A stretch of 36,023 nt of DNA. Origin: a virus. Taxonomy: Duplodnaviria; Caudoviricetes. A program made the translations under genes and the position numbers. The notes under the pieces are model-generated. The model did no database searches. It saw only the letters and a list, made by a program, of their open reading frames with translations, and had not been told where the DNA came from. Below are positions 2,154 through 36,023 of the stretch, piece after piece (the stretch's first letter is position 1; every line of letters begins with the position of its first letter). The stretch spans positions 1-36,023 of IMG/VR virus record IMGVR_UViG_3300024308_000049, one strand, 5' to 3'.

Positions 2154-5100
2154 TACAGGCTCCTCAAGCCAGCTTGTTCGAGAATGCTAAGCAGGTTGGT
2201 CTCGGCGGCGTCATCGCTCACCGCCACGTCCACCGCCGGCCGGCCCGGAATCTCCAGGCGGATGACCTTGCTCGGCGTTTGCGCTGCCTGCTGTGCGGCC
2301 GGCTGGGTAGCCTGCTGCGCCTCCATGCGCTTTTCCTGTTCCTCGGCCTGGCTGGCCTGCTGCGCCTCCATGCGCTTTTTCTGTTCCTCGGCCTGGCGGG
2401 CCTGGGCGCTTTCGGCCTCGATCTGCCGCAGCAGGCCAAGGGCACGACTGGCATTGGCCACCGCCTGGGCGTCGCCGCCCGCCTGCGCCTCGGCGAGCTG
2501 TGCCTGTAGCTCGCGCTGGCGAGCGGCGAACCGGCGACGCTCAATGTCGTCTTGCCGGCCCTGCAAACCATCCAGCTCGTCCTGCAGGCTCTCCAGCGTG
2601 CTGCGGGTCGAGTCGCCCATCTGCTTCATGCGCTGGTTGGCGGCCTCGATAGCCGACTCCAGCCCACTCAGGTCGGATTCATCCAGCAGGCTCAGTGCGT
2701 TCTTCATGCCGCTTGCACGGCGCACGAACTGCTGCGCGGTGAGCGAACCGCGCTCATAGTCACGCATCAGCGATTGCAGACTGGCCTTCTGCGACAGAAA
2801 CGCCTGCTGCGTCTGCAGGCTGGCCTGCTGGGTTTCTGCCATCCAGCGGGCTAGGCTGCTTTGCATCGGCATCGCGAGGGCGGCGCGCACATCACCCAAC
2901 GCCTTGGATACCGACTCCAGGCTGGTGCGCGTTGCATCCAGGCTGCTGGTGTCGATGCTCGGCGCCGCTGTGGTGAGGCCGCGCATTTGGTCGAACAGCT
3001 CCAGCGCGGCCCGGCTCAGCGCCGCCACCGGCTCGCGGGCCCGGTTCATGACGCCGCTGTAGAAGTCCTCCATGGCGGACATGTCGCGCTGTGAGCTGTC
3101 CTTCAGGTCGGTGAGCCCCTTGCGCTCTTCTTCCATCCTCTGGCCGGAAATGCGCCGTAGCTCTTCATTGGTGGCGATGCCGTCTTCCAGGGCATCGTTG
3201 TACATCTCCTGCGAGCGCAGCAGCTTGTCGCCGGCGTCCTTGCCGGCGTCGCCGGTTTTCTCGATCTCGCCTTTCAGTTCGCGCTGCCGATCGCTGGCCC
3301 GTTTCAGCTCCTGGTTGTACTCGGCCGCCGTGATGGCGCCGTCACCGTAGAGTTTGCGCAGCGCCGCACGGATATTGTTGATGTCCACATCCGTGCGGGC
3401 GTTGCTGATGGCATCCTGCACTGACTTCAGGTCGCCCAGCTTATCGTCGAGATCCGATACCAGGTCAGCAGCACCACCGGCAGCAGTGCCCAGGTCACGC
3501 AGCCGCGCATTCAGAACGCCAGTCGCCTGGCTGTATTCTTCCTGGCTGAGCCGGCCTGACTGGTACGCAGCCAGCAACGCTTTGCGCAGCCCTTCGAGCT
3601 GCTCACGGGTGCGGGCGGTGTCGATCAGGTTCAGGGCATTCCCCATATCCGTGATCGCTGCCGTGCCAGCCACCGCTGCGGCTATGGCTTCATCACGCAC
3701 CTTGTGCTGATTGGCCACCAACTGATCAGCATGCGCCTGGTCGAGCATTCGCTGCTGTTCCAGCTCAGACTTGACCGCATCGGTCGTGGACTTCGCCGCT
3801 TCCTTGGATGACTCCGCGGCATCCTTCCCGGCAGCACCGAGCGAGTCGGCAAGGTCTTTAGCGTCCTGCTTGACGCCATCGATCGATTCCTTGATGCCTG
3901 CCCTGACTGCACTGGCGGCCTCATCGATCTTCGCCTTCCACTTCGCCCCGCCAAGCGCGTCGGGCAAGGTGCCTGCCAACAGGCTGGCAGCCTCAAGCAC
4001 ACCTAGCTTGAAGGCTCCCCAGAACGTGCTGGCAGCATTGCCGGCTAGAGTCAGGGCATTCCAGAACTGCTTGGTGCCTGAGATAAACGAATCGAATGTT
4101 TTGAGCGACTTACCCAATCCATCGTCGAATCCATTCAGCCAACGAGTGCTGTCATCGATCAGCTTGGAGAAATCCACCTCCACCAGCCGACCGATAAACT
4201 CTTTGACGCGCTCGGCGCCCTTGCTGAACGCATCCGACAGCGACTGAGCCAGCTTATCCAGACGGCCATCACGATCCATCTGCTCGATGTAATCGGCCAC
4301 GCCAGCCAGTTGCTGCTTGGCGTACTCGAGCGCCCCGCTCTTCGCGATGCGGTCAAGAAAGTCCGTCCAGGTGTCCGATAGGTTGCTCACTAGGCCGGTG
4401 AGCGTGCCCATGTTGTCGGCCGCAGCACCCTGCGCACTGGCACCAATCTCTTTGACCAGCGCAGCGATTACATCGCGACCCAGCCGCCCCTTACTGGCCA
4501 GGTCGGCCAGTTGCGCGGCGTTCTTGCCGGTCACCTTCTCCAGCATCGACCACACGGGCACGCCGCGTTCGACGAGCTGCAGGATCTCCTCGGTCTGCAG
4601 CTTCTGCTTGGCGTAGGCCTGGCCAAGGGCCGAGGCGATGCCCTGCAGGCGCTCCATCCCGCCACCGAGCTGCTCGTTCTTGTCGACCACTGCCTGCAGC
4701 GTGCCGTCCATGGGATCGAGCCCGTAGGACTTCAGCAGCGCGAAGGCCTCGGTCACGTCCTGCACTTGCAGCGGCGTATCTTTGGCAAACTGCTTGATCC
4801 AGGCGGTAGCCTGTTCGCCAGCGGCAACGCTACCCATCAGGGAAGCCATGCGCTTGCCGAGCAGCTCGAAGTCATCGCCCGTAGAGAGCATCGAACGGAT
4901 GCCATCCTTTACCAGCCCAACGCCAGCAGCCAATCCCTGGAGTGCTTTATCGACTAGATAAATTGTGACCAGCCACTTACTGAAATTGACTGCAGCCTGA
5001 GTTACGCCAGTCTTTATCGACTCAATAGCAGAGGCATGCTCAGATGCAGAACGAGCCGCAGCAGCCTGCTCGCGCTGCGCTGCCTTGAGCTGAGCGTTGT

Positions 5101-34182: not shown

Positions 34183-35181
34183 TCAATCCAACCGACCGGC
34201 CACCTCGGTGGCCGTGGCGTTGTAGTACACCATCAACGAACGTGGATCACGGTGCCCGGTCATCCGGGCCAGATCCAGCACATCGAGCTTCCTGGCCAGT
34301 CGCGTCGTGGCCTCATGCCGGGTATCGTGAAAACGCAGGTCGTTGATCTCCAGCCGGTCCCGCACCTTCCTGAACAACGCATCAGCGTTGGCCGAGCTGA
34401 CTGTGAAGAGATTGTCCCTCCCCTCGGCCGCATCGAGCAGGATCTGCAGCAGCTGCACCGCGCGCTTGGTCAGCGGTACGTTGCGCGCGTCACCGTTCTT
34501 GGTCTTGGCCAGGCGCACATAGCGATCAGCAAGCCGAGTGGCAGGCTTGGTCAGCCCCAGGATCTCGCCCTGGCGCATTGCCGTTTCCAGGGCGATCAGG
34601 AAGGCATAGGCCACTTCTTGCGTTTTGGTGGTGGGCGGCTGCCCTTCTACATAGCCCATGCCATCGAGCAGGGCCTTTTCTTCCTCGGCGCTGATGCGTC
34701 GATCACGCGGCCGGTTGTTGCCGGGGCGCTTCACCTCGCGCACCGGGTTATGCCGGCACCACTTCCACTCGGTGCGCGCCTGCTCGAACACGCTAGACAG
34801 CAACGTCATCTCGCGCCGCACGCTCGGGCCTTCCACCAGCTTCAGCCGGGCATCACGCCACTCGGCGATCTGGTCCGCCGTCACGTCGCCCAGGCGCTCG
34901 CCGACGAACTCCAGTTCATTGAGCAGCTTGTCTAGGCGCACTTCCTCCCAGCGCTTGCCCTCCTTGGTCGGCGTCACCTCAGCCTTGTACCGGCCGATGG
35001 CATCTGCCAGAGTGGAATTGCTGCCGGACGAATGGCCAGGGATCGCGGCCAGAATCTCGGCCTCGCGCTGAGTCGCCCAGGCCACCGCCTGAGCCTTGGT
35101 CGGGAAGGTCTGAGACTCCCGCACACCGCGCTTTACGATCTCAGCCCGCCAGCCCCCGCTACGCTTCCTGTACGACGCCAC
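34183..35181 (-). CDS. int: Tyrosine integrase (Rci/HP1-like type)
   Basis: GTG 35181 (MASYRKRSGGWRAEI); catalytic R (TAMRQGE), K (KTKNG), HDTR, GH and Y (VYY). Confidence 0.95.
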   Translation of the reverse strand: MASYRKRSGGWRAEIVKRGVRESQTFPTKAQAVAWATQREAEILAAIPGHSSGSNSTLADAIGRYKAEVTPTKEGKRWEEVRLDKLLNELEFVGERLGDVTADQIAEWRDARLKLVEGPSVRREMTLLSSVFEQARTEWKWCRHNPVREVKRPGNNRPRDRRISAEEEKALLDGMGYVEGQPPTTKTQEVAYAFLIALETAMRQGEILGLTKPATRLADRYVRLAKTKNGDARNVPLTKRAVQLLQILLDAAEGRDNLFTVSSANADALFRKVRDRLEINDLRFHDTRHEATTRLARKLDVLDLARMTGHRDPRSLMVYYNATATEVAGRLD

Positions 35182-35336
35182 GCCCGCCCCCCCTGTTTGG
35201 CGTAATTTTGGCGTAAACACTAACACGTAACTGCCCGAAACTGCCCCGACCTGCGGCATAGCAAAACGGCGAAACCCTTCTAATACGGGGCTTGCACGGA
35301 ACTGGCAGAAACTGCCGCTAACTGCCACTCTACTTA

Positions 35337-35356
35337 GAGTCTCCCCCGGGGCACCA
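35337..35356 (+). other. att core = 3' fragment of a tRNA (probably tRNA-Leu CAA)
   Basis: GAGTCTCCCCCGGGGCACCA reads as T-loop end, T-stem 3' strand, acceptor strand and CCA; no 5' half present. Isotype recalled from Pseudomonas tRNA-Leu. Confidence 0.75.
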
Positions 35357-35367
35357 CGAAACAAACG

Positions 35368-35396
35368 AAAGGCCTTGATTTTCAAGGCCTTTTTTT
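35368..35396 (+). terminator. tRNA-type intrinsic terminator after the att core
   Basis: AAAGGCCTTGA-tttt-CAAGGCCTTT followed by a T-run. Confidence 0.88.
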
Positions 35397-35503: not shown

Positions 35504-35594
35504 TCTCGCCCGTCCTGGGCAACTACTCTCCCCTACGAGCAATCCCGCCGGAAAACTGCAAAATACCGTTCGTCGGTCTAGTGTCAGAAAGTAC

Positions 35595-35623
35595 TTGCTA
35601 TAAACTCTTAAAGGTTTATATTA
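35595..35623 (+). promoter_or_regulatory. Sigma70-type promoter overlapped by an inverted repeat (Aca-type operator candidate)
   Basis: TTGCTA at 35595 and TATATT at 35617; TATAAAC-N8-GTTTATA at 35599-35620. Confidence 0.7.
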
Positions 35624-35693
35624 ACACCCATGGAAGGCGAACAACGCCAACCACCGCCCCGGCGGCTCCGGGCTTCCTGATAGGAGCAACACC

Positions 35694-35921
35694 ATGGAAC
35701 TGAAGATCAACTCTCGCAAACTGGGCCGCACCATTACTTTCTCGCGCCCTGGCTCCAGCTACATCTTTGCCGACCTGAACGGGAAGTCGGGCACCTTGGG
35801 CTGCCAGATTTGCAGCGGTGGCGGCACCATGGGCTCCACGCTTTCCTATGACGGCGACGACCAAGCGCAGTTTGAGGCCATCTGCCGCCGCTGGTATCGC
35901 GCACACGTGCGCGGTGAGTGA
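35694..35921 (+). CDS. acrIE9: Anti-CRISPR protein AcrIE9-like
   Basis: 75 aa with AGGAG RBS; near-identical to the AcrIE9 sequence as I recall it (INSRKLGRTITFSRPG...FEAICRRWYRAHVRGE); acr-type promoter. Not database-checked. Confidence 0.78.
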   Translation: MELKINSRKLGRTITFSRPGSSYIFADLNGKSGTLGCQICSGGGTMGSTLSYDGDDQAQFEAICRRWYRAHVRGE

Positions 35922-35946
35922 TCACCAGGCCCGGCTCCGGCCGGGC

Positions 35947-35974
35947 TTCTACTGCCGAACAGGCAGCCTCAATC
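35947..35974 (+). ncRNA. Solitary type I-F CRISPR repeat-like unit (candidate Racr)
   Basis: ACTGCC-GAACA-GGCAGC at 35951-35967 reproduces the Cas6f/Csy4 hairpin of GTTCACTGCCGTATAGGCAGCTAAGAAA; intergenic, single copy, in an acr operon. Confidence 0.65.
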
Positions 35975-35992
35975 AACGCAAGGATCAAGACC

Positions 35993-36023
35993 ATGGAACT
36001 TTTCAAAATTCTCGATGCTGTAA
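35993..36023 (+). CDS. Start of the next gene in the putative acr operon (MELFKILDAV..., truncated)
   Basis: AAGGA RBS at 35980; ATG 35993; open to the window end. Confidence 0.55.
   Translation, partial: MELFKILDAV

Follow-up and report, generated by a model that had tools for sequence, protein, structure and literature searches.

A solitary type I-F repeat core between acrIE9 and a small downstream gene: a candidate RNA anti-CRISPR in a phage operon

Among the known RNA anti-CRISPRs (Racrs), RacrIF1-3 (Camara-Wilpert et al. 2023, PMC10651486) are single type I-F stem-loops with intact positions C6 and G20, located in intergenic regions of temperate phages beside acr genes, in host lineages that have type I-F systems. 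Cas6f protects ~16 nt of the stem-loop and remains bound after cutting at the 3′ base (PMC10651486). In RacrIF1, mutation of C6/G20 abolished Cas6f binding and inhibition, changes in the handle left substantial inhibition, and the inhibition comes from the product upstream of the cut; the 5′-OH Cas6f product is more stable than a triphosphate-ended transcript, and RacrIF1 loads Cas7f on 70–76 nt (PMC10651486). Bicistrons of a protein and an RNA anti-CRISPR have a precedent in type I-C, namely acrIC5 and RacrIC1, where a repeat mimic lies on the acr transcript shortly past the stop codon and protein and RNA act on the same subtype (PMC10651486). The CracrIF or viral crlRNA mini-arrays found in Pseudomonadaceae prophage acr loci have the same stem as the I-F repeat and a last repeat without a handle, and they need two repeats and a 17–21-nt spacer targeting a cas or creT promoter (10.1101/2024.10.29.618823). 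AcrIE9 is a Cas7-binding inhibitor of type I-E (PMC7913775; 10.1101/2025.05.07.652737; PDB 9wdl), and the passages of PMC7913775 and 10.1101/2025.05.07.652737 at hand describe no RNA element at its loci. A literature search that reached few of the subscription papers turned up no account of I-F cores without a handle within acr operons.

Here we analyze such a core in a linear virus record with a completeness estimate of 75% (Duplodnaviria; Caudoviricetes; IMG/VR record IMGVR_UViG_3300024308_000049), of which all 36,023 nt were considered (hereafter, the window). The following features surround it, L122 being a related acrIE9 locus.

34183..35385, minus strand: tyrosine integrase (PF00589, E 4.7e-21), bordering the acr operon
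35595..35622, plus strand: sigma-70-like promoter of the acr operon, 9/12 consensus matches, predicted start near 35629
35656..35693, plus strand: acrIE9 leader with a GC-rich hairpin and a ribosome binding site, common to other first genes of related acr operons
35694..35921, plus strand: acrIE9 (75 aa; PDB 9wdl_A, E 1.2e-47)
35918..35992, plus strand: in-frame extension of 25 codons through the hairpin, open from a GTG that overlaps the stop of acrIE9; probably unused
35927..35948, plus strand: 9-bp GC-rich hairpin at a cassette junction where relatives switch downstream genes; loose end at 35946
35947..35974, plus strand: full 28-nt repeat-equivalent span, positions 1–4 and 22–28 (handle) degenerate
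35951..35967, plus strand: type I-F repeat core (repeat positions 5–21), 5-bp stem and GAACA loop, predicted Cas6f cut after G35966
35980..35992, plus strand: ribosome binding site plus spacer ahead of the downstream gene; the L122 allele is nearer to consensus here
35993..36023, plus strand: first 10 codons of a downstream 84-aa gene, cut by the record end; whole gene at L122:619-873

The original prediction, a solitary type I-F repeat hairpin in sense orientation inside an anti-CRISPR operon, gave the sequence, coordinates, and orientation correctly: the hairpin lies between the acrIE9 stop (35921) and the next ATG (35993), 30 nt past the former and 26 nt ahead of the latter, on the same strand as both. 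The stem strands CTGCC (35952–35956) and GGCAG (35962–35966) enclose the loop GAACA (35957–35961) and are flanked by A35951 and C35967, with G35966 as the equivalent of G20 of the I-F repeat. Repeat positions 5–21 are kept except for two loop bases, 12 and 14, where the PA14 repeat has other bases; the 14 positions defining the I-F stem-loop, C6 and G20 among them, are all retained. The description of a preserved stem, loop pattern, and flanking A and C next to a degenerate handle is therefore confirmed, with no handle match at positions 22–28, and the span 35947–35974 reaches at most 21/28 identity to any of 51 handle-bearing repeats from the fetched loci. GAACA loops occur in natural repeats beside csy1 (L229) and, next to GAATA loops, within one array (L228); none was found in the one canonical host array read, and the literature searched held nothing usable on the loop tolerance of Cas6f/Csy4. 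It is the natural repeats that suggest that A12 and C14 are tolerated.

The hairpin is real and not a product of chance. In the whole window, ACTGCCGNANAGGCAGC has a single match even when two mismatches are allowed, and that match is exact; the expectation per window is 0.24 chance matches with two mismatches and 0.0008 for the exact 32-variant motif (order-1 Markov). Across 401 Pseudomonadaceae genomes, the exact 17-mer occurs at seven places in four genomes: five prophage-type mini-arrays, one site beside csy1, and one chance occurrence inside a gene.

As had been proposed, the upstream gene is AcrIE9-like: it matches the validated AcrIE9 (PDB 9wdl) over its full length and is nearly identical to it. 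The region of the acr promoter also precedes acrIE9 in L003 (Ectopseudomonas oleovorans), and the integrase marks the element, by gene content, as temperate. The 9-bp GC hairpin at 35927–35948, which received no terminator call, ends 3 nt before the I-F stem. No tRNA was found in the window, and a BLAST search of window positions 35550–36023 against phage and plasmid records gave no match. The promoter/leader module (window 35630-35696; L083, L084, L085) is reused ahead of many different first genes in Pseudomonadaceae elements, and loose ends at its ATG lead to at least three other genes, which makes it a guilt-by-association handle for new Acrs.

How far the hairpin resembles the described elements depends on the definition applied. 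With RacrIF1-3 it has in common the single I-F stem-loop with intact C6 and G20, the intergenic position beside an acr gene, and the temperate phage setting, whereas it matches only 17–18/28 nt and has no handle, and its function as an inhibitor is a prediction from sequence (PMC10651486). The I-F rows listed from the SRU table of that paper all cover at least 92% of a repeat, and the hairpin motif is absent from the table on both strands. While RacrIF1-3 are small RNAs of their own, the window hairpin is embedded between protein genes, ~330 nt from the promoter (PMC10651486). From RacrIC1 it differs in its predicted pairing of a type I-E protein with a type I-F RNA, and in that another gene follows 26 nt after the predicted cut (PMC10651486). 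Although an array of CracrIF layout in L003 contains the 17-mer of the window, the window has one repeat and no spacer (10.1101/2024.10.29.618823); no insertion or joint was seen at the hairpin in eight runs, and the missing handle match likewise sets it apart from the two-repeat Cracr, CreR, and CreA elements. SRUFinder, suggested originally as a check, would reject the hairpin: its rules demand at least 90% identity and at least 90% coverage to a known repeat, a bit score of at least 41.1, and the absence of any other repeat, full or partial, within 100 bp, and the best match is 18/28 nt with 36.2 bits, as compared with 51 repeats harvested from fetched loci instead of the 17,823-repeat set. 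The hairpin is nonetheless solitary, local alignment of both L122 flanks giving 14/28, the same as shuffled flanks; it is intergenic in an integrase-bearing virus record, and its Cas6f stem-loop is intact. The Rfam CRISPR-DR4 model matches at model positions 6–21 only, with 18.6 bits and E 0.65, below the gathering cut-off of 35. Taken together, these comparisons suggest an element that would work like RacrIF1, yet falls outside the SRUFinder definition and is no Cracr.

Predicted folding depends on how much flanking RNA is included. In the 28-mer, the hairpin makes up 98% of the ensemble (z −2.95; 1/200 shuffles as good), and folding of a 41-nt window is not unusual (z −0.28; 68/200 shuffles as good). 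Stem pairing is 0.98–1.0 in the local context, 0.58 in one L122 context, and 0.41–0.43 in the naked 395-nt transcript.

Comparison of acrIE9 loci revealed that the hairpin travels with the gene downstream of it. AcrIE9 searches yielded 20 loci, of which four were left aside: the window's own record, L133 and L134, which end inside the gene, and L126, which did not read as acrIE9 at the listed coordinates. Among the 16 usable others, the hairpin follows acrIE9 only in L122, one of the five close loci (L003, L122-L125). The other four run directly from acrIE9 through the GC hairpin to a 144-aa gene and a helix-turn-helix gene; in L122, the hairpin, the ribosome site, and the 84-aa gene are inserted between the GC hairpin and the 144-aa gene. 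The N-terminus of the latter matches AcrIF25, and we take the gene to be AcrIC6-like; the L122 allele (L122:874-984) lacks the usual start codon, an N-terminally shorter frame remaining. In the wastewater runs, one contig and one joint place the hairpin/84-aa cassette behind another upstream gene. The view of the hairpin as part of the acrIE9 unit must accordingly be given up in favor of a downstream 84-aa cassette. Conservation in homologous loci, one of the checks named with the original prediction, holds for homologous cassettes and fails for four of the five close acrIE9 loci.

Within the cassette, the core is unchanged in L122. In four of four wastewater runs from three studies, the differences listed include no change in L122 566–627 and many in the 84-aa gene; these runs were compared as contigs, of which X5 record 3 has two differences, both outside the hairpin, and X6, X7, and X8 have one, one, and five further differences beyond those listed, the two runs labeled 'RNA?' probably being DNA. 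In four subsurface runs from one study, alleles differ at 35909, 35939, 35985, and 35990, none of the listed positions falling in the core. Conservation among these close alleles is weak evidence because the flanking acrIE9 sequence is often identical too. In upstream-extended gene calls, close alleles have the peptide STAEQAAS and an allele of ~80% identity has STAAQAAS; the latter is compatible with an intact stem and a change at the second loop base, a reading that codon degeneracy keeps short of proof.

The 84-aa protein is acidic (pI 4.5) and predicted to be all-helical, with five helices (model pLDDT 90.8). It has eight close homologues among 13 candidates and 39 profile matches, some of which are repeat artefacts. 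Ectopseudomonas hydrolytica has a homologue (WP_437250214.1), and other homologues are 63–73% identical; a NGEW-type motif is conserved, and distant members occur as fusions, one of them behind an HTH domain (P0160). Searches found no family in PHROGs or NCBIfam, no significant one in Pfam, no PDB sequence match, and no match among phage and plasmid records. Fold searches were similarly uninformative, with a best Foldseek E of 0.75, a best Z of 7.0 (rmsd 3.3, 77 aligned) that lies within the background range, and a best ESM Atlas value of 0.81. The gene was not found in the viral contigs, the 151 relatives, or the 401 genomes of the family of G001 (the genome whose acrIE9 region is closest, at 96% over 398 nt); one search gave only short matches at the level of the hairpin. 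By position only, the protein is a candidate Acr.

The same arrangement recurs in other phages. Viral contigs were scanned for the core with a GNRNA loop followed by GGA and ATG, the control being the reverse-complement core followed by GGA and ATG. The scan returned 65 sense and 26 antisense loci, or 56 and 22 non-redundant matches; 27 and 3 were left on requiring that the downstream frame have at least 50 codons and that no same-strand frame of 100 codons cover the site, and 24 and 0 when the handle match was also limited to 6/8. Of the 24 sense matches, 5 are last repeats of mini-arrays and 19 are solitary. Solitary, handle-poor hairpins ahead of a gene hence make up 19/56 sense versus 0/22 antisense matches (Fisher p 0.0009), a contrast in which the antisense control tests loop orientation and not stem identity and with which a general sense-strand preference for such loops is still compatible. 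The repeat-type pyrimidine is present at loop position 4 in 15 of the 19; four (L167, L179, L189, and L190) look like chance, and L149, which the filters removed, appears by eye to be a further case, with an AcrF8 match upstream (28 bits, cut-off 27). In the usual layout, a stop codon is followed after a short gap by the hairpin, and then come a ribosome site and a small gene, the pre-start position being imposed by the scan pattern. Most neighboring genes have no family match, and L188 has an Aca1 homologue directly upstream. A GC hairpin followed by an I-F hairpin was found at 10 viral loci, one of which (L068, on the same contig as L039/L162) has the layout of the window. The claim that an acr operon contains a solitary core of the I-F repeat is thus borne out, with strand-specific recurrence in other phages.

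Several further matches deserve mention. In L188, L194, and L198, a solitary handle-poor hairpin (~801–817) occupies the leader of a tyrosine integrase gene, in two cases right after an Aca-like HTH gene; such hairpins could couple CRISPR presence to integration, or mark the attachment site. Zymomonas plasmid matches were rejected as solitary sites since they form a two-repeat mini-array: L235:1501-1580, from Zymomonas mobilis plasmids, has a 32-nt spacer and follows an Abi-C gene. Matches in lambdoid tape-measure genes were rejected as coding chance.

A particularly instructive case is the cultured Erwinia phage Midgardsormr38 (MN602881), in which the identical 17-mer, again without a handle, lies 7 nt past ORF85 and before the ribosome site of ORF84. 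By hand count, ORF85 is identical at 43/68 positions to the AcrIF15 sequence given in the PMC7648647 supplement, where the Aca5 row is similar to ORF84. The region L234:1287-1688 reads as an unannotated acrIF15-like/aca5-like operon with a promoter, the identical hairpin, and a terminator. L148 and L160 are homologous to this locus, ORF85 being 69% identical to the L148 gene. Across these three loci with acrIF15-like and aca5-like genes, variation within the 17-base core is confined to loop bases 2–3, leaving 15 invariant, while both flanks have diverged; this pattern is the best evidence that the stem-loop is under selection. Judged from such comparisons, the window hairpin is very probably a repeat-derived site maintained by selection.

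Its likely origin, as the sequences suggest, is the collapse of a viral two-repeat mini-array. The last repeats of viral mini-arrays are usually without a handle, as is that of the G001 array. L003:5157-5225 is a two-repeat I-F array with the same 17-mer, a 20-nt spacer, and a terminator, located after an AcrIF24 homologue, and CracrIF-type arrays of this kind are also present in L009 and L056. In L140 (785-850, 1521-1635), a mini-array is found 0.7 kb from a solitary copy whose 5′ flank is that of repeat 1 and whose 3′ flank is that of repeat 2; both lie within one duplicated gene cluster, and the solitary copy looks like a collapsed array. An uncollapsed form of the window cassette was not found in eight runs. 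Other arrangements exist as well: L228:1400-1620, in a prophage-like region of G038, has, after an HTH gene, an I-F mini-array of five repeats whose 18-nt spacers are nearly identical, and L229:1455-1525, next to csy1 in G019, is a CreR/CreA-like two-repeat element whose second repeat has a GAACA loop.

A connection of this phage lineage to type I-F is supported by the first spacer of the G001 type I-F array, which adjoins cas1f. Two stretches of the window are matched by spacers.

2490..2521, plus strand: protospacer, preceded by a CC PAM, that matches the first spacer in the type I-F array of G001 at 28/32
35809..35840, minus strand: acrIE9 stretch matched by a spacer from run X8 joined to a type I-E-like repeat, AAG PAM on the 5′ side, 30/32 nt covered by the contig

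The mismatches at the former are at spacer positions 6, 9, 12, and 18, and the other eight G001 spacers and nine reversed controls reach at most 21/32; the site falls in a putative tape-measure gene region. With an I-F spacer directed against the phage and an I-E-like spacer against acrIE9, both subtypes appear therefore to press on this lineage. The existence of a host with the matching subtype is indicated indirectly, through the G001 spacer.

On balance, we lean towards the hairpin being an RNA anti-CRISPR whose main function is that of a decoy. Host Cas6f would bind the hairpin within the phage mRNA and cleave the RNA after G35966; by remaining attached to the upstream piece it would be kept away from host crRNA precursors. 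The upstream piece, of ~338 nt and carrying acrIE9, would hold Cas6f and perhaps some Cas7f. Loading of Cas7f is doubtful because the GC hairpin ends so close to the stem and ribosomes occupy acrIE9, and a long Cas7f filament of the RacrIF1 type is less likely than plain capture of Cas6f. The downstream piece would have a 26-nt leader without a handle for Cas5f/Cas8f, so that no Cascade would be seeded over the ribosome binding site, and this piece is therefore predicted to stay translatable; the need to keep the following gene translatable may be the reason for the decay of the handle. One transcript would in this way hit type I-E through AcrIE9 and type I-F through RNA. We infer all of these steps, from transcription through binding, cutting, and inhibition to the cause of the missing handle. 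The stem is predicted to form only ~40% of the time in the naked full transcript, and a single site on each mRNA may not suffice to titrate Cas6f.

The Cas6f cut could instead serve to process the mRNA, reporting the presence of type I-F and altering the stability or translation of the genes downstream, here the 84-aa gene, the 144-aa gene, and the aca repressor, and in other phages aca5-like genes or integrases. We regard this as unlikely to be the main role, even though the greater stability of the 5′-OH product (PMC10651486) would suit it, accessibility of the L122 ribosome site is predicted to rise after the cut (mean unpaired ~0.63 vs 0.49), and the hairpin moves with its downstream gene, separating acr from aca in L148, L160, and Midgardsormr38 and preceding the integrase in L188, L194, and L198. 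The position ahead of the ribosome site was imposed by the scan and is no argument for regulation, and the downstream genes are of many kinds, which fits a decoy riding on any strong early transcript. A decoy function and mRNA tuning are not mutually exclusive. The wider proposition that phages commonly plant handle-less Cas6f sites in acr-aca and integrase operons as CRISPR sensors, which Cas6f would cut only in hosts with type I-F immunity and which would both remove Cas6f and re-tune downstream genes such as further Acrs, the Aca repressor, or the integrase, is likewise speculative and, in our estimate, improbable; if it were true, anti-CRISPR output, and even the lysogeny decision, would be conditional on the host immune system.

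Less probable still is a neutral relic, the last repeat of a Cracr-type mini-array after loss of the first repeat and spacer, at which a cut may occur but nothing depends on it. The absence of a handle from the last repeat in viral mini-arrays and in the G001 array, the flank combination of the L140 copy, which recombination would give, and the L003 array with the same 17-mer all speak for such a history; however, the stem is perfect while flanks and synonymous sites diverge, alleles vary in the loop and not in the stem, and eight runs yielded no uncollapsed cassette. The lambdoid boxB site also has a 5-bp stem and a G-N-R-N-A loop, and stable GNR loops would be favored on the sense strand without any link to CRISPR, which lends some plausibility to the hairpin being the target of a phage RNA-binding protein, in boxB-like antitermination or in control of translation, or a generic stabilizer. 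We consider such a hairpin a poor candidate, as the stem and both flanking bases are those of the I-F repeat across phages of 26–61% local G+C, and solitary sites grade into true mini-arrays. It is most improbable that the core merely encodes protein, reading TAEQAA in the 25-residue extension from the GTG at 35918: the frame is open, some gene callers use it (P0104, P0111), and the same peptide accounts for chance 17-mers elsewhere (e.g., L230), but for most members of the family the called start is the ATG, which has a ribosome site of its own, and distant homologues begin at the position equivalent to that ATG. The extension also varies in its upstream portion according to the upstream gene (P0115, P0134), and identical or loop-variant cores occur in short non-coding gaps of other phages.

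If these sites work, RNA anti-CRISPRs would be more common than catalogued, the 17-nt form being under published thresholds, and acr operons already examined one gene at a time would contain, between the genes, an RNA component that has gone unnoticed. Midgardsormr38, a cultured phage with the identical core in a two-gene operon, makes the question directly testable. If the cut also tunes the downstream genes, the hairpin would give the phage a way of sensing the defense system of its host.
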